From positions 64,001 through 128,000 of IMG/VR virus record IMGVR_UViG_3300031867_000002: 64,000 bases of DNA, one strand, 5' to 3'. The position numbers and the translations under genes were made by a program. The DNA is from a virus. Its lineage: Duplodnaviria; Caudoviricetes. Of this stretch, positions 722 to 60,336 are shown one piece after another; positions within the stretch are counted from its first letter, which is position 1; the number at the start of each line of letters is the position of its first letter. Below the pieces are notes generated by a model, which did not search any database, was not told where the DNA came from, and was given only the letters and a program-made list of their open reading frames with translations.

Positions 722-733
722 TAATTGAAAGTT
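722..733 (-). promoter_or_regulatory. late-type promoter AACT-N6-TA (one of 22 copies)
   Basis: AACTTTCAATTA on the minus strand just upstream of the nuclease RBS. The same motif precedes 22 genes (listed in findings). Confidence 0.7.
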
Positions 734-757
734 TCAGATTAAGTAATTATATATTTG

Positions 758-772
758 TATATTATTATAGTG
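758..772 (+). promoter_or_regulatory. early-type promoter TATATTAT-N6-G
   Basis: TATATTAT-TATAGT-G. The motif recurs 10 times before stand-alone cassettes or operons. Confidence 0.7.
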
Positions 773-853
773 AATAGTAGAGGTCAGACAATGCTATTCT
801 GAAACTCCACGAGGATATGGAGAATATAATACGTTTGCTTTTGAAAGGAGCTA
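772..853 (+). ncRNA. structured 5' leader, copy A (three hairpins, the last covering the SD)
   Basis: Near-identical to 30161-30242 with two compensatory base-pair changes. Confidence 0.65.
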
Positions 854-860
854 TTTTGTT

Positions 861-1313
861 ATGATTACAACATCTGAAAAAAGAGCCAATAAGATAATTT
901 TCCAAATCTCTGAGAATGAGAAAAAAATCTTTGAGAAAAAGAAAACTATCGAAAAACTCAAAAAAGAGTACGAAGAGATAGAAAAGAAAATGTATGAACT
1001 TAAAACACAAGTAGAATATGCAGAACAAGAAGTTAGTTGCATTGAAGAAGTTAATGAAAATTACAGAAAAGAATTAAGGTTGCAAAGAATGCAATCTTCT
1101 GCTGAAAAATTCTGTGAAGTTTTCATAGAAAAACAAGAAGGTCATAATCTGGCAAAATGGGACATTTTAACTAGGTTTATGGAAATCTATGGCAAAGATA
1201 TAATTAATACAAATGACTCAAGAGAAACAAAACGTTTCTTTTTGAGAATTACAAAATGCTTAGGAAATCCTCGTGAGGGAGTTTATATTGGGTACAAACT
1301 TGATATAGACTAA
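861..1313 (+). CDS. hypothetical early protein (N-terminal coiled coil)
   Basis: AAAGGAG RBS, own promoter and terminator, charged heptad-like N-terminus. Confidence 0.75.
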   Translation: MITTSEKRANKIIFQISENEKKIFEKKKTIEKLKKEYEEIEKKMYELKTQVEYAEQEVSCIEEVNENYRKELRLQRMQSSAEKFCEVFIEKQEGHNLAKWDILTRFMEIYGKDIINTNDSRETKRFFLRITKCLGNPREGVYIGYKLDID

Positions 1314-1317
1314 TCTT

Positions 1318-1354
1318 AAAAAGAAACCGTGCTGTAGCCTCACGGTTTCTTTTT
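1318..1354. terminator. intrinsic terminator
   Basis: AAAAAGAAACCGTG-loop-CACGGTTTCTTTTT. Confidence 0.8.
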
Positions 1355-1399
1355 CCTAATTTTACATAATCTATAACACTTACATAAGGAGGTGATATT

Positions 1400-2206
1400 A
1401 TGGATAATCCAACATATCTTTCTTTTGATTCTGGCATTACGGATGATAGAATTTATGCACATAGAGGAGATATATTTATCTGTAATGGACTATTCAAAGA
1501 ATTAGATACAATAGATAAGGATGACCATATATTAGGAAAATCTACAAGACCAGTTCTAATTATTTCTGATGATGAATACAATAGAGATATCGTAAAAGTA
1601 TTAGCATTCTCTTCTAAAGAAGGTTCTGGATATCAAGACTCTATTAACTCTTACAGAAGCATTAGGGTCCCTGGAGTTAATAACAATCCAAACCCAAGTT
1701 ATATTGATGTGTCTCAGGTATTTACTATAAATACATATCAATTAAAAGTCAAGTTAGGACATGCTTCTCAAGATATTGTAGATGCAGCTGTGGCTTTACA
1801 TACTTTACAAAATATAAATCAGAATAGTATTAGTACAATGATGAAAGTATTAAGAGATAGATTCCCAAATGCACAAGCATTTAAACAGAATAATACTGGA
1901 GTTGTTGTTAGTACAAAAAGCATGAGTATGATAGATAATATGAGAAGTCCATTTACTGATGTATTTACTAGTGTACAAAGAGTTAATGAAGAAGATTTGT
2001 TATGTGAAATCAAGAGTACCTTAAAAGAACCAGAAACTAAAGATGATGCATATGTGTTATATCAAGAGTGGTTATTAATGGGTACTGATTCATTCAGAAA
2101 TAAATATGGTTTGAGTAGGCAACAATATTATACACTTAGAGATAAGTGTGTAAATAAAATGTTGGGTAAGGTAAGTAACTTTAAGAAATACGACTGGTCG
2201 ACATAA
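1400..2206 (+). CDS. PemK/MazF-like endoribonuclease domain with C-terminal extension
   Basis: RGDIF...K.TRPVLIISDDEYN...VKVLAFSS...SYIDVSQVFTI...L..KLG matches the PemK/MazF pattern. Late-type promoter at 1375-1386. Confidence 0.7.
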   Translation: MDNPTYLSFDSGITDDRIYAHRGDIFICNGLFKELDTIDKDDHILGKSTRPVLIISDDEYNRDIVKVLAFSSKEGSGYQDSINSYRSIRVPGVNNNPNPSYIDVSQVFTINTYQLKVKLGHASQDIVDAAVALHTLQNINQNSISTMMKVLRDRFPNAQAFKQNNTGVVVSTKSMSMIDNMRSPFTDVFTSVQRVNEEDLLCEIKSTLKEPETKDDAYVLYQEWLLMGTDSFRNKYGLSRQQYYTLRDKCVNKMLGKVSNFKKYDWST

Positions 2207-3230: not shown

Positions 3231-3283
3231 GTCTGTCTAGCGGAACTTTAATATAAAACCAATATTTGAAGGAGGGAGTTATA

Positions 3284-4219
3284 ATGCCAAAAACGTATAA
3301 TAACACGTTTATATATACTAAGTTTCCATATGAAGAACATATCTTTCGTTTTCTAATCAATGCAGATAGAATAGATAAAGATAGTCCTAAGTTTGAAGAT
3401 GTAAAATATGAATTTAAGAAAAGACAAGTTAATAATGGCTTGTTAAAAGTATTGTGTTCCAAGAATGTAATTCTGTTACAATCTCAGGCTCAGCCACTTA
3501 ATACTCAGTTTAGGGTAATCTGTTCTAGAGACCCTAAGTTTAAATCTAATACTGATTACAAAGTATTCATTGATTGTACTGGACTTATTGTAAATGATAA
3601 GGATGGTAATTATAAATGCCGTAGTATTGATATTCTAATTTCTCATGTTATTAATGCTATGGTTACTATGATTTATCATAAAGCTGAAAAAGAAGTATTA
3701 TCCACTTATCTTGTTAAGAATACTATGACTGCTTTCTCTGCTTTGTTTACACATGTAATCGATTACTTAGCAAAGATTTCTGTAATCTCTTCTACTAAGT
3801 CTAAATGTCAATTCTTATCATGTATGTACTTTGTAGAGAATATACTTCAAAAGGAATTCAATGAAGGATACCAACATATGGCTGGCTCCATTTGTAATCT
3901 ATCAGATAGAGAACAAGAGATGATTATGGTACAATGTGATGAAAAAGACTTTGATAATATTAAAGCCTTCGTTTCTAAACTTTCAGACATTATTAAAGTA
4001 CCATCTCTTAAAGTAGATAATATTATTGATAAGTGGATGTATCTCTATGGTACTAACACTGTATTTGCTCTTGAGTATTATCCAGCTTTGTCTGCTATGC
4101 TTACAGATGCATATTGTGGAGCTTATATAAATAATCAAAAGACTATTGAAAAGGTTGTAGGTAATACACTAGTAGAATATTCTAAAGATATTATTTCTAA
4201 AGGTGGAGGTATGGTATGA
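3284..4219 (+). CDS. hypothetical protein, probably virion-associated (first gene of a late operon)
   Basis: GGAGGGAG RBS before ATG 3284, late promoter at 3244-3255, ATGA overlap with the next gene. Confidence 0.65.
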   Translation: MPKTYNNTFIYTKFPYEEHIFRFLINADRIDKDSPKFEDVKYEFKKRQVNNGLLKVLCSKNVILLQSQAQPLNTQFRVICSRDPKFKSNTDYKVFIDCTGLIVNDKDGNYKCRSIDILISHVINAMVTMIYHKAEKEVLSTYLVKNTMTAFSALFTHVIDYLAKISVISSTKSKCQFLSCMYFVENILQKEFNEGYQHMAGSICNLSDREQEMIMVQCDEKDFDNIKAFVSKLSDIIKVPSLKVDNIIDKWMYLYGTNTVFALEYYPALSAMLTDAYCGAYINNQKTIEKVVGNTLVEYSKDIISKGGGMV

Positions 4220-7200
4220 GTACTTATCTTGAAGATGCTCAAGGTAAAATCGTATCTAATCCTATTAATGAAACCAATACTAAGTACGCATATACTCCTA
4301 AGAATGAAGATAATGTTAAGGATGCAAATAACCATCCTATAGACTATCAATATATGTATAATGATGATGAACCAGTTAGCAATATAGATACTGATGTGTT
4401 CTCAAGTTATCGTAATAAGACTGAAGAACTAAGAACAAAGACAGAGAGTTATTATGAAGCTCTTGAATCTTGTTTAGTTCCAGCTGAAATTCCAGGTATG
4501 GCATTTCAACCTTGGGAGTATAGAAAAGATAAGGATGAAGATGGAAATGATATACTGACTAAGATTAAGTCTCTTCAGTATTTCTTCCAAGACCATCCTT
4601 CTAATATAGGCTCTGATGCTAAAGAATTTGTTTTTCGTACTAATAAGGTAAAGTTTGTTGATGACAGACATCGTAGATTAATCTATGATAGAAAGATTCA
4701 TATTATGGCTTTACAAGAAGACGAAGATAATAAAGTATCTTTTAAAGATGTATTGCTTCGTACATTCTTTACCTATTATAATAATCAGTATTGGTGTAAT
4801 GTAAGAAATCTTAATGGTGTTCAGTATACGATTAATAACCTTATGTCTAGCATTATAACAGCTAATACTAAAACTAAAGATAATGAAAAACTAGTTGTAC
4901 TAGTTGAAAATGAAGAAACTGGTGATATGGAAGAAAAAGTAGTAGAATCTGTATTAGACTTTGATTATGTAATGCAATCTGGTCAAGATATAAATACTAC
5001 AATTCCAAGCACTGTATATAACTTATATAACATTGGTTGGATTCACGCATCTATGATATTCTTAAATGGATTAGCAATTCAATGGACTAAAGCAATTATA
5101 TCTGTAGATAATATAGATACATTTGTTATAGTATCTGGTCTAGATGAACCACTATCAAGTTATATAGATAATGAAAAAGAAATTACTATGGAATACATTC
5201 ATATTCCTTTCAAGTGTATCTATACAGTAGGTATAGAAAATGCTTCTAATATGAATTGTCCATATAGAGAATTTCTAAACTCAACTAAGACTAAATTTGA
5301 TACAGTACCATTTATGTTTGATAGACGATATGGTGCTATATTACAAGTCTCAGATTATTATAAGAGTGCTACATCTCATAACACTTATTATGATAGAGTA
5401 ATTTGTGTAGACCCTAATATTAAATTTGCTGAGTTTTATCTTAATGAGGGTAATATTAAAAGTAACGAATTTTATCTTCCTGATATCGGTATACAATATA
5501 ATCAAGACTTTAGAGATTTCTGTAATAATGATTATAGATGTAAACTTAAACAGTTTAACTTTATAGGATTTGAACTCAATAAAGATATTAATGAAGAATT
5601 CGGCGCTAATTCCTTATTGACATTAAAGAATGATGACTTTAAAGTAACTTGGCACCCATTCAATATTTTAGACATCAGATTCAAACGTCTATATAATAAC
5701 AGACGTCTATTTAAAGTATTCTACAATACTAAAGTTTTATATGACCAAGATAATATTCTTCGTATTAAAAATCATGATAAACTTGCAGATGAGTATGAAA
5801 AGTATAGACAAGATGTAACTGCCAATATTGAAACTTATCTCAATGAAGTTTATTTACTTGCTAAGAAAGATATTGGTACTTATATTAATATGAATAAGAA
5901 GACTTATACTTATGGATACAAATATCATTATGTAACTCCATATGAATGCTTCTTATTGTTTAATGCTATACATGGTTTACTTGGTAGACAAACAGTATCA
6001 TTTGATGAGTTTAGAAAACTAAACGTAATCAATTATGAAATCCACAAGAAATCCTCTGATGACGGAGGAGGAGGAGGTGGAGGTGGTGGAGGAGGAACTG
6101 GAGACGGTTTTGATTATATATATCCAGAATATATATATGATGAGCCAGACGATGATGATTATCCAGATGATACACCTTCTTCAGATACTGACGATGATGA
6201 TGAACCGAAAATAGATACAGAACACTATGTAGGATATATGCGTGGTGGATTTGTAGTCTATGATGATGACCATAATTTCTTTAGCGAAATGGTTAAAGAA
6301 AAAACATTGTTCGATAACGAAGGAAATCTTAATGTAGATATAAGAGCATTTTGGGAAACTATTATAGCTCTTGATAGTGTTGCTTATTTAACAGATTTCT
6401 TAATTCCTATAGATGATGTAAGAAATAAAGAAGATGACGAACCAGTATCTAGTAATCTATTCTATATGTATAATGGAGACAACAAAGGTAAGATTGAACC
6501 ATATTCTAAATATATGACTGGTTATTCTTTTGTACAAGAATATGATGATGTATCTTATGACTTCCTTAAACTTAGATTTGAAATGTCTTATCTAAACAAT
6601 ATGGAAGAAGGAGCAACTCCAGTAGATGAATTTATTTATTACTTTGATAATGATAACTTCTTGAAAGCTAATGCTGCTCCAGTTGTATCTTCTTACGATA
6701 AACGGTATACAACAAACTTATTAAATGCATTAGCATATAATGTATTTAAATCAGACCCACATCTAGTATTAGAGAGTATACTGAAATTAAATTACTCTGC
6801 TGACTATATACTTCCTAAGTCATTACCTGTTAATACAAGTAGGGATAATATAATTACTTCATCAGAAACCAATTCTATATATTCAGATTATCATAAAGAC
6901 CCAAGATATTTCTATAACTTTGGTTATTACGATAATGCTACACCTCATAAGCTTGTATCAGAATGGGGTCTTAGACGTAATCTTCCAGAAATGTTCTATT
7001 GGGCATTAGAGGAAGATGAGTATACTATAGATAGTATGCATCTCTTAGATGAAGTATTTGATTTCACATACGGGTTTGATAAATCTTATGAAGAGAATCT
7101 GTTTGGTCAAGGTGATAAAACTAAAGGTATGAACTATATTATCGGTTATGATGCTGATAAAATAGAAGCTACTATAAAACGTGGTATTACATCATTCTCT

Positions 7201-9531
7201 AGGACAGGTAAAGAGATTAAAGATTATATCAATTCTCATCCTACAGAACTATATACGAGTATAGATAGTTACAAAATGTTTACCTTTGTAACTAATAATA
7301 ACTATATTGTTACTACTAGTCTTGAAAGATTATATGCTACTATCAATAGAAACGGTAGTGTATCATTCTCTTATGTAGATGGCGATGGTATATATCATGA
7401 GAATGTAACTACTGATATAGAGCTTAGATACAGAGGACAAGTAAATCCTACTATTAAAATCAATACTACTGATTGTACTATTACTGATATAGATAAAGGC
7501 TTTACTGTTACTTATGCAGCAAATAAGACAGTCTATAATAATGATACTGAGCTATTAGAATTTTATGATGATAATAATAATTTACTTGTTACAATGCAAG
7601 TAGATAGAATTAGTTCATATACAAAACTTAGTATGTCACGTTGGAATATATCTAAACAAGATAACTATGTAATGATATTTAAGAATAGAGTATTGTATGA
7701 TAAGTACTATACTATTCATTATACAGATATTTCATTCGATGTAGATATGAATGAATCTGATGTAACAGATGATGATGTATTTGAATTTGTATTCTTCCTG
7801 AATGCTAATAACAGAATCATTGAAAAGAAATGTACATCAGCTAGTGATGTATCATTAACTGTTCCAAGTGCTTATATATCTAAGAGTAGTAATGGTATTA
7901 GAAAAGATACAAATAACGATGATATGGACAAAGGTTTATATCAAACTTTAACAAGTGATTATACTTTTGATAAACCTGCTATAGCATGTGATACAAGTTT
8001 ATTTGATGCAGAGAATATTCAATTGCTTGTAAATAAAATGCCTAGTCATAATGATGATACTTATAGTACATCTGATAATAAAGTTACGACATATGAGTTA
8101 AACCATGATGTATATTATTATAGAGCTACTATAGATAATGGTACTTCTGTAAACTATCAGAGATTTGTTTATAATATCGTGAAAGATACTAAAGTAAATG
8201 GTCTTTATAGACTTACTAAACAAGGTGGAGGAGAATATTTCTTAACCTTTGATGGTACAGTTCCAGAAAAGACAGATACTATAACTACAGATACATCTGA
8301 CCCAAAATTTATAGACTATGGTTATCCTACTGACAGAACTCTTACATTACCATATACAATATACTTATCTTCTAAACGTCAATTTAGATATCAACATCAT
8401 GTAATTTCAGAAAATCATGATTCTGCATATCTAATGACTTTGAATTCAGACTTTAAGTTCTGTACAAAGAATAGTCACGTACTGTTATTCAAGAATGGCC
8501 TATTATTACCACCAACTTATTACTATCTACATTCTATTATAAATACCCCTATAAATCATGTAGGTATAATATTCAATATTCCTCTTGTGAAAGATGATGT
8601 TATAGATGCATTCTATGTGACTAATGATTTACATCATCTTGAATGCGATTATTATGATGTCGTTAATCAAGAACGCTATATATCAAATGGTGATATTAGA
8701 TTAAACTCTCATGATAACGAATATAGAGTAATGGGTGAAGATAAAAACCAAGTAGATTATCCAGAAAAGACTGAGCATCCTGATTGGAGAACAAACTATA
8801 TTAAAATGCGTTCTCCATTATATGCAATTTCTAGTAAACATTCTACTTTTGTATTCTTAAATGGAAAGAAAGTTATGATGAGTGAACTAGAGGATATATC
8901 TGATACAATTATGTCTATCAATACAGATTATGCTCGTAATGGTGATGATATGGCTGCTGTACGTTTGGAAGTAATTAATCATTTAGATGTACAAGATATT
9001 ATTGAACAGATGTATATCAATGATGGTTTAATGCATAGTAAGTCAGATTGTAATCTTCAGTTTGGTAGTACAAACAAACCAGAATCTTATAAAGATACAT
9101 TACAGATAAATCAGTTTTCTCTTACAGACCTAGAGTCATATGCTAAGAGGACTTTATTAGACGAAATACTAAATGATTTGTCTGATGAGAATCTAAACAA
9201 GCTATTCTATAATTATGATAATGCTACTGGTCCTATGACTCAAGAAGGTGAATTAGAAGAACCAGACTTCATTAAACCAGACGAGATTATAGATGAAATT
9301 ATAGACGAGTATTATTATGAAGATGATGGTGATAAGTTTATTTGGCATACAATGCATGATGAAGACAACGGATTCTCTAATACAGTATTCTATATTGGTG
9401 AAAAGGATAGTGTTAGAGTACCTGTAATATGGGATGAAGAAAATGTAAAAGCATTATACGGTACAACCTTCAATAGAAATGATATTATTAAGAAAATCAT
9501 TATTCCTGAAGGTGTAGAAAGAATTGAGTAA
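4216..9531 (+). CDS. large virion (tail/baseplate-associated) protein ending in the N-terminal half of a BspA-type LRR
   Basis: 1771 aa with repeated (V/I)FxNG strands typical of jumbo-phage structural proteins and a Gly11/acidic linker. C-terminus is VRVPVIWDEENVKALYGTTFNRNDIIKKIIIPEGVERIE-stop. Confidence 0.6.
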   Translation: MSTYLEDAQGKIVSNPINETNTKYAYTPKNEDNVKDANNHPIDYQYMYNDDEPVSNIDTDVFSSYRNKTEELRTKTESYYEALESCLVPAEIPGMAFQPWEYRKDKDEDGNDILTKIKSLQYFFQDHPSNIGSDAKEFVFRTNKVKFVDDRHRRLIYDRKIHIMALQEDEDNKVSFKDVLLRTFFTYYNNQYWCNVRNLNGVQYTINNLMSSIITANTKTKDNEKLVVLVENEETGDMEEKVVESVLDFDYVMQSGQDINTTIPSTVYNLYNIGWIHASMIFLNGLAIQWTKAIISVDNIDTFVIVSGLDEPLSSYIDNEKEITMEYIHIPFKCIYTVGIENASNMNCPYREFLNSTKTKFDTVPFMFDRRYGAILQVSDYYKSATSHNTYYDRVICVDPNIKFAEFYLNEGNIKSNEFYLPDIGIQYNQDFRDFCNNDYRCKLKQFNFIGFELNKDINEEFGANSLLTLKNDDFKVTWHPFNILDIRFKRLYNNRRLFKVFYNTKVLYDQDNILRIKNHDKLADEYEKYRQDVTANIETYLNEVYLLAKKDIGTYINMNKKTYTYGYKYHYVTPYECFLLFNAIHGLLGRQTVSFDEFRKLNVINYEIHKKSSDDGGGGGGGGGGGTGDGFDYIYPEYIYDEPDDDDYPDDTPSSDTDDDDEPKIDTEHYVGYMRGGFVVYDDDHNFFSEMVKEKTLFDNEGNLNVDIRAFWETIIALDSVAYLTDFLIPIDDVRNKEDDEPVSSNLFYMYNGDNKGKIEPYSKYMTGYSFVQEYDDVSYDFLKLRFEMSYLNNMEEGATPVDEFIYYFDNDNFLKANAAPVVSSYDKRYTTNLLNALAYNVFKSDPHLVLESILKLNYSADYILPKSLPVNTSRDNIITSSETNSIYSDYHKDPRYFYNFGYYDNATPHKLVSEWGLRRNLPEMFYWALEEDEYTIDSMHLLDEVFDFTYGFDKSYEENLFGQGDKTKGMNYIIGYDADKIEATIKRGITSFSRTGKEIKDYINSHPTELYTSIDSYKMFTFVTNNNYIVTTSLERLYATINRNGSVSFSYVDGDGIYHENVTTDIELRYRGQVNPTIKINTTDCTITDIDKGFTVTYAANKTVYNNDTELLEFYDDNNNLLVTMQVDRISSYTKLSMSRWNISKQDNYVMIFKNRVLYDKYYTIHYTDISFDVDMNESDVTDDDVFEFVFFLNANNRIIEKKCTSASDVSLTVPSAYISKSSNGIRKDTNNDDMDKGLYQTLTSDYTFDKPAIACDTSLFDAENIQLLVNKMPSHNDDTYSTSDNKVTTYELNHDVYYYRATIDNGTSVNYQRFVYNIVKDTKVNGLYRLTKQGGGEYFLTFDGTVPEKTDTITTDTSDPKFIDYGYPTDRTLTLPYTIYLSSKRQFRYQHHVISENHDSAYLMTLNSDFKFCTKNSHVLLFKNGLLLPPTYYYLHSIINTPINHVGIIFNIPLVKDDVIDAFYVTNDLHHLECDYYDVVNQERYISNGDIRLNSHDNEYRVMGEDKNQVDYPEKTEHPDWRTNYIKMRSPLYAISSKHSTFVFLNGKKVMMSELEDISDTIMSINTDYARNGDDMAAVRLEVINHLDVQDIIEQMYINDGLMHSKSDCNLQFGSTNKPESYKDTLQINQFSLTDLESYAKRTLLDEILNDLSDENLNKLFYNYDNATGPMTQEGELEEPDFIKPDEIIDEIIDEYYYEDDGDKFIWHTMHDEDNGFSNTVFYIGEKDSVRVPVIWDEENVKALYGTTFNRNDIIKKIIIPEGVERIE

Positions 9532-9551
9532 TAGAGAGGTGGTAATTATAT

Positions 9552-10628: not shown

Positions 10629-10639
10629 GAGGTGATTAT

Positions 10640-11194
10640 ATGTCTAGTTTTATTATAAATCCTAATAAGAGAGATGGATACCCTGTTATAGATGATAATA
10701 CACATGATTTTGGTCCTACACAAACTACTCCATATCCAAAAAGAGAATTCTATACTGGTTCTGATTTATTAGACGGGTATCCTATAATGGATGGTTGGAA
10801 AAGTTTTAGTCCAGTACAAGATAGCATATATCCAAGTAACATGTTTAGGATTGATGCTAGTAAAATGCAAGGCTATCCATCATTTTCATTCTTTGGAGAT
10901 TTTAGTCCAGTACAAGATAACATATATCCAAGTAACATGTTTAATATTGATGCTAGTAAAATGCAGGGCTATCCATCATTCTCATTCTTCGGAGATTTTA
11001 AAAATTTTGGAGCATTTGAATTTGCTGAAAATTTAACTAAGATAACAATACCTAGAAGTGTTCGGTATGTATGTGATTACGCTTTCTGGGGTTGTAATAA
11101 TTTAAAAAAAGTTCGTATACATCCAGATTGTGTATACTTTTCACATTCTTTTCCAGAAGAATGCGAAATTCAATTCTATGAAGAAAACGAATAG
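10640..11194 (+). CDS. adaptor-like protein 1: GYP repeats plus C-terminal half of a BspA (LRR_5) repeat
   Basis: Four xxGYP repeats, then GAFEFAENLTKITIPRSVRYVCDYAFWGCNNLKKVRI. Confidence 0.65.
   Translation: MSSFIINPNKRDGYPVIDDNTHDFGPTQTTPYPKREFYTGSDLLDGYPIMDGWKSFSPVQDSIYPSNMFRIDASKMQGYPSFSFFGDFSPVQDNIYPSNMFNIDASKMQGYPSFSFFGDFKNFGAFEFAENLTKITIPRSVRYVCDYAFWGCNNLKKVRIHPDCVYFSHSFPEECEIQFYEENE
10804..10995 (+). repeat. 96-bp tandem duplication (2 copies, 32-aa unit)
   Basis: 10804-10899 versus 10900-10995 differ at 6 positions by eye. Confidence 0.95.
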
Positions 11195-11246
11195 AATATA
11201 TGGCTAGCTCATATGAGCTAGCCTATTATGTAAAGGAGGTAAGTTT

Positions 11247-12906: not shown

Positions 12907-12984
12907 TATATCATCCCTCATCTCTTTATCTTGAACAATATTATAAAACATAGACTCTTAAAAAGAGTCGGAAAGGATTGTGTT

Positions 12985-14776: not shown

Positions 14777-14847
14777 AGGCTACCTCCTTACTATATAACA
14801 GCAATAATATCTTTAATATAAAGTTACGTAGGCTGAGAGACAAAATT

Positions 14848-16275: not shown

Positions 16276-16368
16276 AATAAATTACCTACCTTTCTTAATT
16301 ATTTTACTTTTATGTTAGTAAATTAATTAAAAAATACGTTATGGTAATTCAAATACCCTAAAATATTA

Positions 16369-17583: not shown

Positions 17584-17672
17584 ATAAATATACCTCCTTG
17601 TGTATATATGATATTACTAAATTGTTGAGGTTGTGTAAAACTAAGAGAAGATACTTGTTATATAATAATAGT

Positions 17673-18264: not shown

Positions 18265-18411
18265 ATTCACATTCTCTACTGCTGCTACGACTGATAAAAA
18301 CAGACAGCCTTTGACAAGCGGTTTGTTTTTTGTAATATTTGTCATAAATGTATATTATAAAAGTGGTAAGTGAGCAACTCTATGATAATATGTTTAAGGA
18401 GGTATCTATAT

Positions 18412-18876: not shown

Positions 18877-18923
18877 AACAGTATCTCCAACTTAACATTA
18901 ATAAATATAAGGAGGAACATATT

Positions 18924-20570
18924 ATGTCAAAAGTATGCACGCCATCTATACCATCTACAATGACTGAGTCATTACAACCACAACCAATAGTAACTCATAC
19001 AGAGAATTATGATTATTTGTATGAAAGATTAAGTAATTGGTATGAATTTGAAATTAGAGGTAATTATCCTAACAATCAATCACTTGATGAATTTGGACGC
19101 CCGAAGTATAGATATGAGTCTAGAATTGAAGTGATTGACTTTGATGAGGAATGTGAATCAGACCTTATTAAAGGTATTGGATTTATCATTACTAAAAAAC
19201 AAGACATCAAAAAAGATATTCGTAGTAATGATAGTATTTTTAGTAGTAGATATGGATTACAGATTGATGACATGACACCATTTGGAGATGTCTATAAATG
19301 TGATTGTGGACGTATGCAAATGAAAGTGAACAAAGGATTGTTTTGTCCTATATGTCATACAAAAGTTAAATATGTAGGTAGCGACTTTAGTATTACTGGT
19401 TGGATTAAAATCAATGAACCTCATTTTGTAATTCATCCTAACATGTTTAAGAAATTGATAAGCTTTATTGGTAAGAAAAATCTCGATTCTATTATTAATC
19501 TAGACTATAAGATTGATGAAGATGGATTTCAAATTAAGAAAGACACATTGAAGTCTAATCCATTTATCGGTATCGGATTTGAAGAATTCCGTAATCAATT
19601 TGATGAAGTGATGGAGTTCTTTAAAAATAAGCATAAGAATAATCAGAATAAGCTTGAATTCTATGATGATATTATGTCTCATAGAAATCTTATTTTTACT
19701 CACAGCTTACCTGTATATACGTCTCAATTAAGACCATATAGTATTAAGAAGAATAGATTTAGTTTTGAAGGTAATAATGCGTTATATAATGTAATAGCGG
19801 GTACAGCAGCAAAGCTAAATAAATCTCAATTCAATTCTCGTGGTAGAGCAAAATCTACAAATCAATTAATCTATGATATCCAAATGAGATATATGGAAAT
19901 ATATGCTGATTTGGAAAAGATTATTGCTCAGAAGAAAGGTTATGTTAGAGCATTAAATGGTGGTAGATATAATTTTACTGCTCGTAATGTAATTATTCCT
20001 GACCCAGATTTGAGAATTGATGAGATTATCTTACCATATTCTACTCTTATTGAATTGATGAGTTTAACAATCATTAATATCTTGACAAAAACCTATAGTC
20101 CTAGCGAAGCATATCGTATCTGGGACGAAGCAAGAATTGAATATAATCCTATGATTGCTGACCTGATTCAATCTATTATTGATAGTCAGTATGTAGGTAT
20201 TATATTAAATAGAAATCCTAGTATCTCACCAGCATCTATTATCCAGCTTCATCTTATTGGAGTTACTAAAGATGACACTTATAGTTGTAGAGTTCCTCAT
20301 GAAATTCTTAAATCTATGGGTGCAGATTTCGATGGTGATACTTTGAATATCATGCTTATAATTAATGATAACTTTTTGATTAATGCAGCTCGTTTGTTTA
20401 ATCCTAGACTGTCTATGCAAATCAGTTATAATGATGGTATGTTTAATGCTAACATGGCATTACAGACAGATACAATGATTTGTATCAATAGCTTTACTCA
20501 GCTTGGTATCGATGAGATTACAGAAGAAGAGTATGCTATGATTGAAGCTTGTCAGATGTGTGAAGATTAA
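18924..20570 (+). CDS. rpoC: phage multisubunit RNA polymerase beta' N-terminal (catalytic) subunit (probably virion RNAP)
   Basis: Zinc finger CDCG...CPIC, KKGYVR..GGR.NFTARNVI.P, LNRNPSI and catalytic GADFDGD. Confidence 0.92.
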   Translation: MSKVCTPSIPSTMTESLQPQPIVTHTENYDYLYERLSNWYEFEIRGNYPNNQSLDEFGRPKYRYESRIEVIDFDEECESDLIKGIGFIITKKQDIKKDIRSNDSIFSSRYGLQIDDMTPFGDVYKCDCGRMQMKVNKGLFCPICHTKVKYVGSDFSITGWIKINEPHFVIHPNMFKKLISFIGKKNLDSIINLDYKIDEDGFQIKKDTLKSNPFIGIGFEEFRNQFDEVMEFFKNKHKNNQNKLEFYDDIMSHRNLIFTHSLPVYTSQLRPYSIKKNRFSFEGNNALYNVIAGTAAKLNKSQFNSRGRAKSTNQLIYDIQMRYMEIYADLEKIIAQKKGYVRALNGGRYNFTARNVIIPDPDLRIDEIILPYSTLIELMSLTIINILTKTYSPSEAYRIWDEARIEYNPMIADLIQSIIDSQYVGIILNRNPSISPASIIQLHLIGVTKDDTYSCRVPHEILKSMGADFDGDTLNIMLIINDNFLINAARLFNPRLSMQISYNDGMFNANMALQTDTMICINSFTQLGIDEITEEEYAMIEACQMCED

Positions 20571-30076: not shown

Positions 30077-30160
30077 ACAATTACCTCCTAACATTATTAA
30101 GTCATTATTAAATAGTTATTGATGTGAAAGTTAAAGGATTTGAATATATATTATTATAGT

Positions 30161-32242: not shown

Positions 32243-32308
32243 ACAAATACCTCCTTTAATATTTTAATATAATGTTAGAGAGACCCGAATTAATGGGTCT
32301 CTCTTATA

Positions 32309-36313: not shown

Positions 36314-36399
36314 ACTGTTTCCTCCTTTACAAGAATCTTTATATTAAAGTTCCACTATTACAATAAAAAAGAAACGTGCCATAAGAGGCACGTTTCTCG

Positions 36400-38265: not shown

Positions 38266-38345
38266 AATAAATTCCTCCAATATATAATATTATAGGTAAG
38301 TTGAGACAAGTGTAGTTTTTGCCCCAACTTACCTATTGGGTTCAA

Positions 38346-42289: not shown

Positions 42290-42403
42290 TATCCGATTCC
42301 TTCTTTCATTTTAATTTTGAGAGTAAGCGTCTCTCTATTACATAAATAATATATGATTCAACTTACTATTAAATTATTGTACAGAAGGGAGTAGATTCTT
42401 AAT

Positions 42404-44392: not shown

Positions 44393-44475
44393 ACTAACTA
44401 CCTCCTTTACATATTATAATAAAGTTCAACACTAAAAAGAAACAGGACTAATACAAGCCCTGTTTCTTTTTTATA

Positions 44476-46375: not shown

Positions 46376-46445
46376 ATAGACACCTCCTATGATATATTAT
46401 AAGGAAGTTAAAGCGAGGGTAGGAATCAACCTACCCTCAAATATA

Positions 46446-48424: not shown

Positions 48425-48519
48425 AACAGTCCTCCTTTCATAGTATTATATCAATGTTCTGGAAATCAAATATAATGAGATTGTAAAAGTTTAATATTTT
48501 GTATATATATAATATAAGT

Positions 48520-51177: not shown

Positions 51178-51211
51178 ATCGGTTCCTCCTTTAAATATAT
51201 AATAGTATTAC

Positions 51212-51988
51212 TTATTTGTTTTTGGGTTTCTTTTTTACTACCTTTAACTTCAGGGTAGCGTAGTCATTATCTTCTTTACTATATGTGTCGATGATTGCAG
51301 TTTTAGAGTATCCATTTTCCCACAACCATTTACCTAAATCTAAATCACAATATAGCATCTTATCATCAAAGAAGACATTGAATTTATAGTTTAATAACAT
51401 AATTCGTTTTTCAATAAATTTCTGTTTAAACTTATATACATCATATTTACTTTTGAAAATAAATTCAGTATAATCGTTTACATCTATATCAGATAACTCA
51501 TTGACTATCTTTACGTTAACACTTTTATGATATCGTCTTACAATATCTTCTTCTAGTTTATTCCCGCATACTATAGTAACATGTGTATTATCCATAGCAG
51601 CATATACAGAGATTAGAAAAAATATTCCAGTGATTGCCATATACTTACTTTCTTTAAGTAAGTCACCATATCTAGTAGACATGATTTCTTTATAAATAGA
51701 ATCTGCAATTTCTTTATCTTTAAAGCATATTGTTAATGGATTAGGGTCTTCTCTATTGATTAGAAGAAATTTAACTTCTTTTGTTGACATATTCATAACG
51801 TCTTGGTTAATGAATTTAGGATTGTTGTATTCTGCTTGTACCATTCTTAATACAGCAAAATCTAAATCTACTATAGTATTAAACATAACTAAATAATTAT
51901 GATAACCTGCTGCAGCTTTATCTACTTCAATCTTTTTCTTTGTACCATCTGGGTTAACTTCTTCTACATTAATAGAATCAATTGCCAT
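51212..51988 (-). CDS. hypothetical protein (possible degenerate HAD-like fold)
   Basis: YLVMFNTIVDLD N-terminal strand; weak evidence. Confidence 0.5.
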   Translation of the reverse strand: MAIDSINVEEVNPDGTKKKIEVDKAAAGYHNYLVMFNTIVDLDFAVLRMVQAEYNNPKFINQDVMNMSTKEVKFLLINREDPNPLTICFKDKEIADSIYKEIMSTRYGDLLKESKYMAITGIFFLISVYAAMDNTHVTIVCGNKLEEDIVRRYHKSVNVKIVNELSDIDVNDYTEFIFKSKYDVYKFKQKFIEKRIMLLNYKFNVFFDDKMLYCDLDLGKWLWENGYSKTAIIDTYSKEDNDYATLKLKVVKKKPKNK

Positions 51989-52455: not shown

Positions 52456-52456
52456 C

Positions 52457-53702: not shown

Positions 53703-53831
53703 AATACTTACCTCCTGGCTTTTAGCCATAATAATATTTTACTTATTTGTTTATGGTATGGTAATTTATAACTCTAATCGTACCTGATTAGGTCAACTTA
53801 TTAATAAAAATCTTAAGAAAGGAGTATTATC

Positions 53832-56177
53832 ATGAAAATAGTAGATACTGGTATTACAATTATAGAAGAGAAAGAAGATAATAATGACGTCCAATATAAT
53901 CAACCAGATAATCTAGCTACTATGAATCCTATACCAAATGCCAATCAAAAAAGATATGTTCCATTGCTTAGTTTCATGGCTAATAGAAATAATAATGGTA
54001 TAGAAGAAGATAGACGATATGATGGTTCTGGATATGTATCTATCTTTTATCAAATGAATACTCAAAACCAGTCTTTTCTAGATATGCACTACTATTTAAA
54101 AGCAAAAGGTATTAAAAACAATAAGTTTCATTTATTGTTATATGATAAGGATTTAGCATATATTGACCCTCATGACCCATATTTACCTCCTCAAATAAAA
54201 CAAAAAGTATTTCTAGAATGTCAAAGAAACTTTTGGTATTATATAAGAGAAGTAGTTAGAGTACAAAGTCAGGGTGGACCTTATGTAAGATATAAACTAG
54301 ATAGAGGTAATCTAGCATTAAATTTTTGTTTTACATTGAATCTGAATATATATCAAGAACAACCACGTCAGACTGGTAAAACGGTTGCAACAGAAGTATG
54401 GTTTAGTTGGGTATATAACTTTGGTTCTCGTAATGCTAATATGGTATTCTTAAATAAGAAACATGATGACGCTAAACGTAACTTATCATCTCTTAAAGAT
54501 ATTATAAAAGCATTACCTACTTATTTACGTTTTGACCAAGCATTCGGTGTAGATGGTAAGAAGCTTAAAGCATCTAATACCGTGCAATATATCCAGCATA
54601 AGATTAACTTTAATAATATTAAAGCTCTACCAATGGCTCGTAACCGTACATCTGCTATATCTTTACTTCGTGGTCAAACTATTACTAACTGTTGGATTGA
54701 TGAATCTGCGTTCTTCCAATATTTAGAAGAATCTTTACAAAACGGTATGCCAGCATTGACTACCGCATTTAGAAACTGTAGAATTAATGGAGCACCTCAT
54801 GGACTTTGTTTAACTTCTACACCTGGATTCTTAACAACAGAAGAAGGTCAATATATGTATGACCTTAAAAATAAGATGACTCCATTCTCTGAACTATGGT
54901 ATGATTTTTCTTTACAGAAATTAACAGAGACATTAAATGCTAATGAGAAGTCTATCTTTGTATATATTAAAACAACTTATCAACAACTAGGATATTCTGA
55001 AGAATGGCTTAAAGAAAGAATCAAAGAACAGAACCAAAAATGGACTGACATAAGACGTGAATTCTTACTTGAATGGGCTACATCTTCTGAAAATTGTCCA
55101 TTCTCTCAAGAGGAACTTAGAAATGTGCAAAGATATGTACGCAATCCAATTAAACAAGTTTATATTTCCAACTTCTTATTCAATATCTATTCTGAGATAT
55201 CTCCAAGAGATAAGACATTGATTGGTGTAGACGTTGCGGCAGGTTACTCTAAAGACTCTTCTGCAATTTCTGTTACAGATTCTAAGACTACTAAACTTGT
55301 AGCAGACTTTAACTGTAACTATATTAACCCAGTTGATTTGGCTACAGTAATATATAACCTTGTATTAAACTACTTACCTAACTCATTAATTACTATCGAG
55401 CGTAATGGTGTAGGTACAGGTACACTAGCTAAGTTAATGAAATCTAAGATTAGAAATAATCTATATTATGAGATTAAAGAGCGTACTATAGAAGAACGTC
55501 CTGATGGATTAAGGTCTCATAAGAGAAAACAACTTACTAAAGTATATGGTGTAGATAATACTGGTACTGTACGTGAACAATTAATGGACTTATTAACTGA
55601 CCGTGTAAGAGACCATTATGATAAATTCATATCTCCTATCTTGTATGAAGAATTAAAGAATCTAGAAATTAAAAAGACTGGTCGTATAGACCACTCTGCT
55701 AATAGTCATGACGATAGTACATTCTCTTACCTATATTCTATTTATCCTATTTATTATGGAAAGAATGTAAGAGAAAATTGGAATATATCTATACCTACAT
55801 TAAGAACAGCAGATGATGAGGCACAAGAAATATTCCAAGACTTTAGTGCTATAGAAGAGATATCTATTGTTAGAGATATAGAAAATCTTGAAAATGATGA
55901 TATGATTAATGAACAACTTAAACAGTTGGATAAGACAAAATTATATAGTCAATTCTTAGCACAGCAACAAGCTGAAAATGATAGAGCTATGGCTCAAATA
56001 TTATCTACTAAAATAGGTAGAGAAGCATATGCTAGACAATTTAATATTCCTATAGAAAATATAGAATCCGATGAAACTGGATTTAGTATGCTAGGAGCTA
56101 TAAATAATTTCTACTCAGAATCTCTAGATGAAAGCGAAGATTATCAAAGATATAATGATTATCCGTGGAGACAATAA
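53832..56177 (+). CDS. terL: terminase large subunit
   Basis: Walker A PRQTGKT, Walker B CWIDE, motif III TSTPG and nuclease motifs IGVDVA...D.S...IERN...HDD. Confidence 0.92.
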   Translation: MKIVDTGITIIEEKEDNNDVQYNQPDNLATMNPIPNANQKRYVPLLSFMANRNNNGIEEDRRYDGSGYVSIFYQMNTQNQSFLDMHYYLKAKGIKNNKFHLLLYDKDLAYIDPHDPYLPPQIKQKVFLECQRNFWYYIREVVRVQSQGGPYVRYKLDRGNLALNFCFTLNLNIYQEQPRQTGKTVATEVWFSWVYNFGSRNANMVFLNKKHDDAKRNLSSLKDIIKALPTYLRFDQAFGVDGKKLKASNTVQYIQHKINFNNIKALPMARNRTSAISLLRGQTITNCWIDESAFFQYLEESLQNGMPALTTAFRNCRINGAPHGLCLTSTPGFLTTEEGQYMYDLKNKMTPFSELWYDFSLQKLTETLNANEKSIFVYIKTTYQQLGYSEEWLKERIKEQNQKWTDIRREFLLEWATSSENCPFSQEELRNVQRYVRNPIKQVYISNFLFNIYSEISPRDKTLIGVDVAAGYSKDSSAISVTDSKTTKLVADFNCNYINPVDLATVIYNLVLNYLPNSLITIERNGVGTGTLAKLMKSKIRNNLYYEIKERTIEERPDGLRSHKRKQLTKVYGVDNTGTVREQLMDLLTDRVRDHYDKFISPILYEELKNLEIKKTGRIDHSANSHDDSTFSYLYSIYPIYYGKNVRENWNISIPTLRTADDEAQEIFQDFSAIEEISIVRDIENLENDDMINEQLKQLDKTKLYSQFLAQQQAENDRAMAQILSTKIGREAYARQFNIPIENIESDETGFSMLGAINNFYSESLDESEDYQRYNDYPWRQ

Positions 56178-56212
56178 AAGAACCCCACACCAATAAAGGT
56201 GTGGGGATTTTA

Positions 56213-56821: not shown

Positions 56822-56835
56822 TTTAGTTACCTCCA

Positions 56836-57090
56836 TTAGTTAAAATCTTTAATAACTTTGTTTTCGAACTTCTTATAAGCATCCAGATAGAGTTCGTTAG
56901 TATCTCTATTATATGTACACTCATAGTACATACCATCGGGAAGAGTAGTACTAATACACGCCTTCCAGTTCTGAAGTGCCTTGCAAGTCCATACGATATA
57001 AACATCGTCAAGCGTGATAGAAACCTCATCGGTTTTATCAAGGTGTGATACAACATAGTCGTATACTACTTTTCTCATCTTATCAAACAT
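56836..57090 (-). CDS. DUF6275-like phage protein
   Basis: DDVYIVWTCKALQNWKA.IST..PDGMYYE.TYN....ELYLDAYKK.EN. Confidence 0.7.
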   Translation of the reverse strand: MFDKMRKVVYDYVVSHLDKTDEVSITLDDVYIVWTCKALQNWKACISTTLPDGMYYECTYNRDTNELYLDAYKKFENKVIKDFN

Positions 57091-57138
57091 GATAGATTCC
57101 TCCTTATAAAAATTTACTATTTTGTTTCTGAATGTGTA

Positions 57139-57525
57139 TTATTTAAAAGTCGGGATTTCACGATTCAGAATTTCATCAAAACCAGATGTAGACAACTCCT
57201 CAATGTAACGAATATCTGCCACATTAATAGAAGTAGTCTTGGAAATATTATCATCTGAATAGTCAATCTTAAGTGTATCTACTACAGTAGGTTTAGTATT
57301 CTGATTTACAAAAGATAAAACCTCTTCTGTATTACACATAGTATATCCAGTAATACGTGCATTATAAGTACGAAGTCCTGTCATATTATCTGCAACAGTA
57401 ATCTTATATACCTTATCAGAAGAAATCTCGTATACACATTTAGCAATCTTATCTTTCTTTTGATACGATACCTCTAGAACAAGTCTTAATACTGCCTTAG
57501 CATTACAAGTTAAAAAAGAAACCAT
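57139..57525 (-). CDS. hypothetical protein
   Basis: AAGGAGG RBS; late promoter at 57548-57559. Confidence 0.65.
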   Translation of the reverse strand: MVSFLTCNAKAVLRLVLEVSYQKKDKIAKCVYEISSDKVYKITVADNMTGLRTYNARITGYTMCNTEEVLSFVNQNTKPTVVDTLKIDYSDDNISKTTSINVADIRYIEELSTSGFDEILNREIPTFK

Positions 57526-57587
57526 ATAATTACCTCCTTTGGTATTTTAATAAAATGTTGAGGGGTGATTATCTCACCCCTCATATA

Positions 57588-59405
57588 TTATCTCTTTCTC
57601 TTATTTCTCTTTCTATTCTTTTTAGTGTTTCTCATCTTAAGTGGAGTCATATACTTATCAATCTCATCAACAAGCCAATCTACACCTTTCTTAATAGCTT
57701 GAATAGCTCTACTATTATTAGCTGTATAGTTTAGATTGAGAAGAGAGTTGGTAAGATAGTATCCATATATGTGTTCTTCAAGACTACCATCTTCTACAGC
57801 TGCTTTAACTTCAGATACAACAAGAGAGATTATAGTCTTAGAATAATCTTCTGGATATCCTGCTGTTAAAAGACCCTTGAGACAAATATCTAAATCTCTT
57901 GGTTTTGGAGATATTTTAGAAATAGTATTATTATAATCTTCTACTAGTTTATTCCAATTGTCTCTACCATTCTTATAATGTTTATTACAGATAGATGGAT
58001 TATCAGAAATTTTATTTCCTATTCTTATCATGCTAAGAGATTCTTCAAAGTTTTTAGCAACCAATTCTAATTGATTTGCTTTTTCTGGGTCTGTGTCTCT
58101 AATCTCTTTAGATTTTTCAAGAAGATTGGTAGTAAACTTATCATAAACTTCATCATTATATTCATCCATCATAGTACCTACAATATTACCCATAGGCGCA
58201 AGTGTTTCTTTAAGTTCTGTGTTGAAGTCTTTAATCTCTCTATCAAGATAGGTATTATTAACAAGGTCATTAATAAATGACTTTGCAAAGAAGTTAATAG
58301 TAGAACGGTCTGCTCCAACAGACATAGCTTCTTTAAGAATTACATCCTTAATAGACTGAGGTAATGCTTCAAATACATTGAATTTCTCATGAGCTTTATA
58401 ACGATTCATTACAGAAATTAACTGAGCTGCATCTTGATAAGTTACGCTATCATATTGTTCCATAAGTGCAGAAGTAATTACTTCATCAGGAAGATTAATT
58501 TCAGTTACAGGAACATCATTAAATTCTTCGATACTCATAGGTTTGTCTTTATCATCTTCTTCAACTTTAGGAAGAGCTTCGGTTAATGCTTCTCCAGAAG
58601 TAACTTTATCAATAGTTGTATTAAGATTATCTATTACATTTTCTAAAGATTCATTATCATCAAAAGTAGCTGGTTCTGATAGTATAGCTACAGCAGATGG
58701 AAAACCAAAAGCTACTTTATTAATAGATTCTTTAGAAAGCTTTGGCTTTTCTTTTTCTCCTTCTTTAAATACATTAATTACAGATTCTGCATCCATTCGA
58801 GTATTCTCTTCAACAAGAGTAACACCTTCAACTGGAGTAGCAATTTCACCTGTTCCATCAGACCATTTTTCTTCTGTGAATTCAACTGGAAATGAACTCT
58901 CCTGAATTTCCTCCTGAGATATTACCTCTGTTACTTGTTCGATATCACCAGCAATAGGTGTATTAAGATTTGCTCTAAGTTCTGCTTCAATATTACTCAT
59001 AGCTTCATTATCCTCCTTAGTCATTTGCTGTGTAGTTTTACCTAGTTTTCTAGCTTTCATATCTTGATATTTCTGATACATACCATTAGCAATAAGTTCA
59101 TTTCTTTCTTCAATACTCATTGGTGTATCAGATTCAAAAATACCTTTAAGAATCTCCTCTTCAACAGCAATATTATCTTGTTCTAATTCTCGCTGTTCTT
59201 GCATGATAGGGTCATAGAATTTTGATGTTTCTTTAATCTGGTCCATCAATATAACATCTGGATTTTCCATACGGGTTTTACAAAGAGAATCAATTAGATT
59301 ATTGATATCTTTTCTACTCATATCTTTATGAGTAATATCCATATCAGATGGTGAATAAGCATAATTTCCTTCATTGATAGGATATGCATTGTCGATAATA
59401 GGCAT
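57588..59405 (-). CDS. hypothetical acidic protein
   Basis: 605-aa ORF translationally coupled (TAATG) to the upstream gene. Confidence 0.65.
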   Translation of the reverse strand: MPIIDNAYPINEGNYAYSPSDMDITHKDMSRKDINNLIDSLCKTRMENPDVILMDQIKETSKFYDPIMQEQRELEQDNIAVEEEILKGIFESDTPMSIEERNELIANGMYQKYQDMKARKLGKTTQQMTKEDNEAMSNIEAELRANLNTPIAGDIEQVTEVISQEEIQESSFPVEFTEEKWSDGTGEIATPVEGVTLVEENTRMDAESVINVFKEGEKEKPKLSKESINKVAFGFPSAVAILSEPATFDDNESLENVIDNLNTTIDKVTSGEALTEALPKVEEDDKDKPMSIEEFNDVPVTEINLPDEVITSALMEQYDSVTYQDAAQLISVMNRYKAHEKFNVFEALPQSIKDVILKEAMSVGADRSTINFFAKSFINDLVNNTYLDREIKDFNTELKETLAPMGNIVGTMMDEYNDEVYDKFTTNLLEKSKEIRDTDPEKANQLELVAKNFEESLSMIRIGNKISDNPSICNKHYKNGRDNWNKLVEDYNNTISKISPKPRDLDICLKGLLTAGYPEDYSKTIISLVVSEVKAAVEDGSLEEHIYGYYLTNSLLNLNYTANNSRAIQAIKKGVDWLVDEIDKYMTPLKMRNTKKNRKRNKRKR

Positions 59406-60229
59406 TAATATTCAGCTCCTTCTTCCTCTTCATTATATTCTTCATCATTAGTATCTTGTTGTTCTGGAACTTGTTCTTGTTGAGAAACCATTATATCCGA
59501 TTCTAATAGCTTTTGAATTGCAATTCTAATCTCTGTTAGAATAGTTGGATTATTTACTACTTGACAAAATTCATCTTTAAAGATATTTCCAAAAGGTTGA
59601 ATGTTTTGATATAAGAAGTCACACATATCTCTATTATAATTAAATGACAAGAAAGTATAAAGGTCTATATCAAATCCAGACATATAATATACCACTTCTT
59701 TAATACGTGCAATTATAATAGATACTACTTGGTCATTATATGCTTTTCGTATATAATTAGAAGTACTGTCTTTAATCTTCTTATATCTATCTAATCCCAT
59801 AGCATCATAGAATTGATTTCTATTAGTATAGATATAACGAGCAAAAAAATTAATAATGTTTCTAGCATAGCCAGAAACAAAAAGGTCATATAAATTATAA
59901 GCTAGAATATAACAGTCTGGTTCATTACCAACATACTGTACATTAAAAGAAGAACAAATTTTATTGATTATATTAAGATAAGTTTCATATCTAATAGACA
60001 TAATATTATCTGCATCTGATGGGAATCTACCAAGCATATCTTTAAAGTTAATTTCATAAGAGTTAACAATATTTGGATTGGATAAAGTAGGATTATAAGC
60101 AAATCTATTCTTAATAGAGTTATCAATAACATCCATCACATATGAGTTACTAAATTGAGAGAGTAGACTAGCTACTTCTCCTTCTGCGACCATATTATAA
60201 ATCTGGTCATTTCTATACAAGTCAATCAT
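59405..60229 (-). CDS. hypothetical protein
   Basis: AAGGAG RBS; late promoter at 60257-60268. Confidence 0.65.
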   Translation of the reverse strand: MIDLYRNDQIYNMVAEGEVASLLSQFSNSYVMDVIDNSIKNRFAYNPTLSNPNIVNSYEINFKDMLGRFPSDADNIMSIRYETYLNIINKICSSFNVQYVGNEPDCYILAYNLYDLFVSGYARNIINFFARYIYTNRNQFYDAMGLDRYKKIKDSTSNYIRKAYNDQVVSIIIARIKEVVYYMSGFDIDLYTFLSFNYNRDMCDFLYQNIQPFGNIFKDEFCQVVNNPTILTEIRIAIQKLLESDIMVSQQEQVPEQQDTNDEEYNEEEEGAEY

Positions 60230-60336
60230 GAGAGACACACTCCTTTATATAAATATTACTAAATTGTTAAATTATGTGTTGAGTACAAAAAAGAAGGGCT
60301 GGAGTAGAGCAGCCCTTCTAAAGCAATAGTTATTTA

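Follow-up and report, generated by a model that had tools for sequence, protein, structure and literature searches.

Late promoters of the jumbo phages AR9 and PBS1, which infect Bacillus, are read by a holoenzyme composed of the non-virion RNA polymerase (nvRNAP) and the protein gp226 (PMC7598289; PMC9209446; Lavysh 2017, PMC5312081). The AR9 late promoter, A(-11)ACA-N6-T-A/G(+1), is recognised in the template strand, with gp226 acting as the specificity subunit (PMC7598289, PMC9209446). The uracil at position -10 lies between I207 of gp226 and R363 of the beta-N subunit, its C5 atom being 3.9 Å from V206, while the G at -9 stacks on Y210; a V206G change lets the enzyme use thymine (PMC9209446). 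Polymerases of the AR9 type have so far been linked to uracil DNA: the phages that carry close gp226 orthologues are said to have uracil genomes (PMC9209446), and this base has been described as the way in which jumbo phages without a nucleus keep their RNA polymerase (RNAP) off host DNA (PMC13282480). According to reviews, sequence-only prediction of jumbo-phage late promoters fails (PMC7598289). Here we analysed a window of 64,000 nucleotides (nt), bases 64001-128000 of the 224,632-bp virus record IMGVR_UViG_3300031867_000002, in which a preliminary description had listed 22 copies of the word AAC(A/T)-N6-TA as AR9-type late promoters and had proposed that the genome may contain deoxyuridine (dU). 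Our results make it likely that the word, refined to AAC(A/T)-N5-R-T-A-A, is the nvRNAP late promoter of this phage and that its DNA, unlike that of AR9, is ordinary thymine DNA.

The phage is an uncultured jumbo phage whose record carries direct terminal repeats and is rated complete; the DNA and RNA libraries containing its sequence come from bovine gut. Its GC content is 31.7% and its ribosome-binding sites are of the AGGAGG type. A megablast search with 20 kb of the window returned no match among cultured phages. At the protein level, the nearest cultured phages were Yersinia phiR1-37, Bacillus AR9, PBS1 and BpSp, Staphylococcus S6 and Listeria LPJP1, all with ~25-35% identity. AR9 homologues were found for 53 out of 192 predicted proteins, including the terminase, capsid and sheath proteins, GroEL, SbcCD and the products of four virion-RNAP (vRNAP) and four nvRNAP subunit genes.

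Position and consensus of the promoter word

All of the copies listed previously were present (22/22), and their reported placement near starts in the matching orientation was confirmed, each copy being located 24-51 nt upstream of a same-strand ATG with an AGGAGG-type ribosome-binding site. The preliminary description had also named a lack of enrichment over background as grounds for giving the motif up. In the window as a whole, bare AACW-N6-TA gave 144 matches versus 182 +/- 13 in shuffled sequences, so that overall enrichment was indeed missing, while placement was far from chance. Genome-wide, 70 AACW-N6-TA matches were found 25-60 nt upstream of starts, compared to only 8-11 when the spacing was altered (AACW-N5/N7/N8-TA) and 6-15 for words with permuted letters, and relaxing the first positions (BAC, ABC, AAD) produced no enrichment. 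We also performed a dyad scan in which every combination of 3-mer, gap and 3-mer (34,256 dyads) was counted with no prior in 192 upstream regions. AAC-N7-TAA ranked first, above the Shine-Dalgarno dyads, and was present in 72 of the 192 regions versus 4.2 expected (binomial p = 1.7e-67). When AR9 was scanned as a positive control, the top dyads were ACA-N5-TTA and AAC-N6-TTA, which recovered the published promoter in the same register as the motif described here, the latter being far easier to find bioinformatically (p = 6e-20 in AR9).

The genome contained 166 copies of AACW-N6-TAA, 72 of them in promoter position (a position that accounts for ~3% of the sequence), and 24 of the ~59 genes in the window carried the word versus ~1.3 expected. 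The 13th base, unspecified until then, was A in 67 of the 70 genome-wide sites and in all 22 sites of the earlier list. The predicted +1 base was A in 78 sites and G in 6, while position -8 was A in 43 and T in 27 of the 70 sites, with neither G nor C enriched. The refined consensus is AAC-W-N5-R-T-A-A, and two window sites that were absent from the earlier list, 18376-18388(+) and 59448-59460(-), fit it. Here as in AR9, AAC stands at -11 to -9, its distance to TA is fixed at 7 nt, its spacing to T(-1) is likewise constant and the +1 base, predicted for our phage, is a purine; the leaders are also short and no -35 element is present. Unlike in AR9, where position -8 is A, both A and T occur there (43:27), +1 is almost only A, +2 is a near-invariant A and -2 is R. 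The AR9 enzyme shows almost no U/T preference at -8 (PMC9209446).

The word bears signs of function. Inside the genes of the whole genome, AACW-N6-TAA appeared 49 times in sense orientation versus 71.5 +/- 8.4 expected from codon shuffles and 26 times in antisense versus 58.2 +/- 7.7, the antisense depletion being the stronger one, which suggests selection against stray promoters. At the terminase promoter AACTTATTAATAAAA (53795..53806, + strand), relatives with 74-93% terminase protein identity kept AAC and TAA and mostly the whole word, while the sequence farther upstream diverged; in relatives with 81-93% identity, the word was invariant next to a divergent upstream flank. In its divergent partner at 53740..53751(-), the N6 changed while most relatives inspected retained both AAC and TAA, and in a distant relative with 46% terminase identity the top dyad was ACA-N6-TAA. 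Terminator-like hairpins were enriched (13 versus 4.7 +/- 1.8 expected) and several of them ended only a few bases from the motif, so that a terminator is followed by the promoter, then by the ribosome-binding site and the ATG.

A homologous polymerase and the genes for thymidine nucleotides

The attribution of the motif to an AR9-type system found further support in the coding capacity of the phage. Homologues of four nvRNAP and four vRNAP subunits were identified in the genome, which thus encodes a cognate enzyme with split beta and beta' subunits together with a gp226-type subunit, homologous to the five-subunit enzyme of AR9. The gene of the nvRNAP beta' N-terminal subunit lies in the window (18924..20570, + strand; Pfam RNA_pol_Rpb1_2) and its product is 30% identical to AR9 gp270, while the beta-N subunit matched chain c of 7S00 (E 3e-34). 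The AR9 gp226-like factor, whose search elsewhere in the genome had been recommended, was located outside the window at genome positions 140647-142227 and has 526 amino acids (aa). Since phmmer found nothing at E <= 1 among Protein Data Bank (PDB) sequences, BLASTP, PHROGs and a fold search were needed to show the relationship. The protein was 22% identical to AR9 gp226 over 451 residues by BLASTP (E 3e-16), it matched PHROG 25005 over positions 19-462 of 464, the full length of the family, and its gene was found in the same gp227-gp226-primase order as in AR9. An AlphaFold2 model with a mean predicted local distance difference test score (pLDDT) of 85.5 gave as best Foldseek matches AR9 gp226 7S01_A (E 3e-14, 512 columns) and 7UM0_A (E 3e-12), followed by phiKZ gp68 (8QUE_B, E 1.6e-05). 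The homologue and AR9 gp226 (PDB 7S00/7S01/7UM0/7UM1) thus resemble each other over the full length, both domains included, and share a short helix in the 2.1bis position that contains the invariant Trp, as well as the gene neighbourhood; they differ in that identity is only 22% and the homologue is 62 residues longer. In the deposited sequence of LPJP1, the gp226 homologue (216553-217827 of its record) is broken by one in-frame TAA, which may stem from a sequencing error, from an intron or from a splitting of the gene.

phiKZ gp68 belongs to the same protein superfamily as the gp226 homologue. The phiKZ enzyme works on thymine DNA, and phiKZ encloses its DNA in a nucleus made of protein. Its late promoter, T(-3)ATG(+1), is a different word from the one described here, and AR9 is a much closer relative of our phage than phiKZ is.

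We then compared the residues that hold the -10 uracil in AR9. The five uracil phages share the gp226 motif D-x-V-I-W-x-[Y/F], whereas the phage studied here has N-N-I-L-W-K-I, located in a short helix at the 2.1bis position (model residues 248-255) in which the Trp is kept; this Trp was invariant in all 126 gp226 sequences. The V206 position is occupied by Ile249 and the Y210 position by Ile253, so that neither Val206, the residue that discriminates U from T, nor the aromatic residue at 210 of the dU phages is present. Among 121 clade sequences, this phage included, the V206 position was I in 32, V in 21, T in 20, P in 14, G in 9 and D in 8, with others in the remainder, and the Y210 position was aliphatic or polar. 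The beta-N pocket was read from an eight-sequence alignment, the pairwise phmmer alignment being too uncertain. R363 of beta-N is Arg in the five uracil phages and in a distant relative, and Asn in this phage and in a close relative, while K375 is kept. In the five dU phages, the V206, Y210 and R363 positions are invariant or conservatively kept. The alignments suggest that the uracil-pocket residues of AR9 are not under the same constraint in the clade, which fits a pocket that need no longer exclude thymine.

The nucleotide-metabolism genes pointed in the same direction. A ThyX gene was found at genome positions 10644-11807(-), encoding 387 aa with an insertion of ~150 residues; the protein scored 118 bits in Pfam, exceeded the cut-off of the TIGR02170 equivalog and kept the motifs HESxxEH, RHR...S-x-RY, ARxxLP and LRxDSHAQ. 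ThyX was present in 6/6 complete clade genomes (this phage and five relatives), with an intact open frame in the five relatives, the distant one included. In contrast, none of ThyX, ThyA, dUTPase or the DCD family was found in the five known or probable dU phages, AR9, phiR1-37, S6, BpSp and LPJP1, the DNA of the latter behaving as uracil DNA in PCR (PMC8460666). A dCTP deaminase gene (genome 6107-6658, - strand; above the TIGR02274 cut-off) lies 4 kb from ThyX, and the family was present in 3/3 relatives tested. The closest solved relatives of the deaminase are the bifunctional, dUMP-forming DCD-DUT enzymes of M. tuberculosis, M. jannaschii and B. halodurans (59-64 bits), versus 36 bits for the monofunctional E. 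coli enzyme, so the deaminase would probably be bifunctional and, with ThyX, reads most simply as a dCTP -> dUMP -> dTMP pathway. Consequently, the deaminase, which the preliminary description had taken as a marker of dU, is present but would rather fit the supply of dTMP. Searches for dUTPase, ThyA, dCMP deaminase and uracil-DNA glycosylase (UDG) in the genome found none. Neither did tblastn (E <= 0.1) return homologues of the AR9 UDG inhibitor Ugi, dCMP deaminase, 5'(3')-deoxyribonucleotidase, ribonucleotide reductase, NrdI or guanylate kinase; the deoxyribonucleotidase (E 0.74), NrdI and other matches were at chance level (E 0.3-1.0, ~24 bits).

The neighbourhood at genome positions 6107-12605, outside the window, comprises the dCTP deaminase, then ThyX and then a 264-aa P-loop protein (11811-12605). 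An AAC promoter was present upstream of the deaminase gene, and another upstream of the P-loop/ThyX pair. The 264-aa protein has a weak thymidylate-kinase-like P-loop, FFIEGGDNVGKTTT (E 0.037), and belongs to no PHROG or NCBIfam family; given only this match and no family, it was not counted as a kinase.

Probable thymine DNA and the competing explanations

The findings are consistent with a mechanism in which a five-subunit phage RNAP, with split beta and beta' and a gp226-like, sigma-like subunit, would bind AAC at -11 to -9, presumably in the template strand as in AR9. Transcription would start at the A after the T, seven bases downstream of AAC, and the ribosome-binding site would lie in the resulting leaders of ~13-40 nt. 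The promoter would serve ~72 transcription units in the whole genome, of which 24 belong to the window; these include genes for virion proteins, lysis and packaging, as well as some with an additional early TATATTAT promoter. The dCTP deaminase and ThyX, possibly with a kinase, would together make dTMP. Because the phage carries these thymidine-nucleotide genes, its DNA is probably ordinary thymine DNA and the uracil proposal is probably wrong for this phage.

That the promoter is read by the phage's own RNA polymerase is very probable on the comparisons above. The 3' half of the word reads RTAAW, some sites contain TATAAT and the probable host, a low-GC Firmicute, has AT-rich -10 boxes, as would be expected if host RNA polymerase transcribed these genes from a sigma-A type -10 element or if the word were the site of another factor. 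We consider this highly improbable, as sigma-A elements do not have an invariant AAC at a fixed distance of 7 nt, no -35 element was found at 16-18 nt, the phage itself encodes two complete RNAP sets and no homologue of the AR9 helix-turn-helix 'sigma factor' gene was found. In addition, sigma-70-type sites were at the level of shuffled sequences (105 versus 103.6 +/- 9.0), and a host sigma-70 reading of the word was rejected on this count. The fixed short distance to the ribosome-binding site and the several copies that abut terminator hairpins could instead reflect a conserved 5'-leader element that is not a promoter, such as an RNA processing site, the site of a translational regulator or a terminator-proximal punctuation mark. 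This alternative has an equally slight probability: the depletion inside genes extends to the antisense strand, where an mRNA leader signal would not matter, the word occurs at the divergent pair 53740/53795, which has no upstream transcript, and it matches the experimentally mapped promoter of a phage with a homologous enzyme (PMC7598289).

The proposal with which the preliminary description ended, an AR9-type promoter read via template-strand deoxyuridines in a genome where dU replaces dT, is unlikely in our assessment, though less so than the two preceding ones. In its favour, the promoter architecture is identical to that of AR9 and the gp226 homologue has kept the 2.1bis helix together with the invariant Trp; the genome encodes a dCTP deaminase but no dUTPase, a bulky beta-branched Ile stands at the V206 position and, judged by RNAP, every one of the nearest cultured relatives is a dU phage. 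What tips the balance is that ThyX with its catalytic motifs occurs in 6/6 clade genomes and in 0/5 dU phages, that the AR9 dU toolkit (Ugi, dCMP deaminase and 5'(3')-deoxyribonucleotidase) has no homologue here, that the deaminase is nearest to dUMP-forming enzymes, and that the V206 position varies freely in the clade, Gly, Pro and Asp included, with Y210 and beta-N R363 replaced. The phage and many relatives also assemble readily from standard Illumina metagenomes, a weaker point, while native LPJP1 DNA failed standard library preparation (PMC8460666). Of the two gene-based signs that had been named jointly as speaking against dU, dUTPase and a thymidylate synthase (ThyA/ThyX), only the latter was found, as ThyX.

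Several points nevertheless weigh against ordinary thymine DNA and a late promoter as we read them. No dUTPase was found, and the dCTP deaminase, if monofunctional, would increase dUTP, as in PBS2. A homology search would miss a UDG inhibitor or a dTMP-removing nucleotidase that is not homologous to its AR9 counterpart. The pocket alignments rest on 22-30% identity and, on the AR9 geometry, the Ile at the V206 position, bulkier than Val, would still clash with the thymine methyl. Finally, the motif also precedes nuclease, chaperonin and RNAP genes, and for this reason 'late' is a label borrowed from AR9 and not a measured class.

In the literature consulted, no thymine-type relative of the AR9 system was described. 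We think it somewhat more probable than the contrary that the AR9 promoter word is read in ordinary thymine DNA, via a remodelled gp226/beta-N pocket, by the jumbo phages of a large clade, all uncultured and from gut and rumen. At least 358 gp226-like proteins were found, while the gene set of this genome was checked in only five complete relatives. This phage and its relatives would combine both AR9 promoter classes and the full set of enzymes with a thymidylate synthase, and would have lost the residues by which AR9 excludes thymine. If so, uracil dependence would be a specialisation of the AR9/phiR1-37/S6 branch and not intrinsic to the transcription system, promoter and base modification would be separable, and nature would already offer variants at position 206, where the engineered V206G change enables AR9 to read thymine templates. 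Sequence alone would also suffice to predict the late promoters of these phages, and one would have to ask how a polymerase with a 6-base promoter and no uracil tag is kept off host DNA.

Promoter sites and neighbouring genes in the window

The 24 sites provide a putative transcription-unit map of the window. Coordinates are window positions, and each predicted promoter is given with the gene that it would drive. The late-type promoter AACTTTCAATTA(a) at 722..733(-), with a predicted +1 at 722, precedes the SbcD-like nuclease gene starting at 698, and the one at 1375..1386(+), with a predicted +1 at 1386, precedes gene 1400-2206. The site at 3244..3255(+) would drive 3284-4219, encoding a virion structural protein, together with the next gene (1771 aa). 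Genes 12985-13821 and 14249-14776 lie behind 12934..12945(+) and 14814..14825(-), respectively. The promoters at 16305..16316(-) and 17615..17626(-) were assigned to an HNH endonuclease gene (15571-16275) and to the gene of the vRNAP beta' C-terminal subunit (16369-17583), the latter being a late gene because the enzyme is packaged. The HNH gene is free-standing on the minus strand, with its own late-type promoter, and adjoins the vRNAP subunit gene, unlike in AR9, where HNH genes are found inside introns of RNAP genes. The extra site AACTCTATGATAA at 18376..18388(+) lies 36 nt upstream of 18412-18876, with an early promoter (18351-18358) just upstream of it, and 18889..18900(+) lies directly upstream of the nvRNAP beta' N-terminal subunit gene.

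On the minus strand, 30106..30117 precedes gene 29330-30076; 32265..32276, just behind a hairpin, precedes the endolysin gene 30776-32242 (GH25 and M15); 36340..36351 precedes 32309-36313 (1334 aa); and 38291..38302 precedes 37696-38265. An exonuclease gene, 42404-43093, follows the plus-strand site at 42360..42371. Further minus-strand sites were found at 44415..44426 (gene 43133-44392), at 46398..46409 (gene 45950-46375), 4 nt behind the terminator hairpin 46414-46439, at 48447..48458 (gene 46964-48424, an endonuclease of PHROG 15137) and at 51209..51220 (gene 49483-51177, a GroEL-like chaperonin). The divergent pair comprises 53740..53751(-), assigned to gene 52890-53702, and the promoter 53795..53806(+) of the large terminase gene 53832-56177. 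Downstream, again on the minus strand, 57115..57126 precedes gene 56836-57090, and 57548..57559, whose AAC overlaps the last base of the bidirectional hairpin 57559-57583, precedes gene 57139-57525. This perfect GC-rich hairpin and that at 56183-56206 score as terminators on both strands. The extra site AACAAGATACTAA at 59448..59460(-) falls within the end of the upstream gene, at a distance of 55 nt upstream of 57588-59405, and is the weakest candidate of the window sites. The site at 60257..60268(-), assigned to gene 59405-60229, lies ~24 nt behind the terminator hairpin 60292-60319.

A second motif, TATATTAT-N4-GTGATAG, often with TGTAAAA ~19 nt upstream, was found at 25 sites genome-wide, 60-160 nt upstream of starts, and the early promoters annotated in AR9, AAATWTATATTAT, have an identical TATATTAT core. 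The window copies are located at 758-765, 2253-2260, 18351-18358 and 30147-30154 on the plus strand and at 15218-15225, 42346-42353, 45938-45945, 48509-48516 and 61621-61628 on the minus strand. They are probably early promoters, used by the vRNAP, with long leaders. Because both the late-type word and the TATATTAT core are shared with AR9, both AR9 promoter classes are present here, and, as in AR9, they coexist and some genes carry both. The genes behind the AAC word encode virion proteins, a vRNAP subunit, the terminase, the endolysin and GroEL, as well as nucleases and an nvRNAP subunit that also has an early promoter, a set that resembles the late and 'continuous' classes of AR9. In particular, the unit combining the early promoter at 18351 with the late-type promoter at 18889 (nvRNAP beta' N) looks like a member of the 'continuous' class.

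Between window positions 51000 and 60500, eight short contigs with 100% identity were found in one bovine-gut RNA-seq library. None of them ends at a predicted +1; such contigs cannot show transcript starts and no conclusion was drawn from them. DNA-like libraries from other studies contained variants of the same region with 90-99% identity, so that cattle gut samples repeatedly contain the phage and its relatives. Two further genes were noted near the ends of the window, one for a MazF-like protein (PHROG 1936) at 1400-2206(+), behind a late-type promoter, and one for a weak Abi-alpha-like protein (PHROG 1841, E 5e-05) at 60337-61512(-), behind an early-type promoter. Both may be host-takeover or inter-phage conflict genes.

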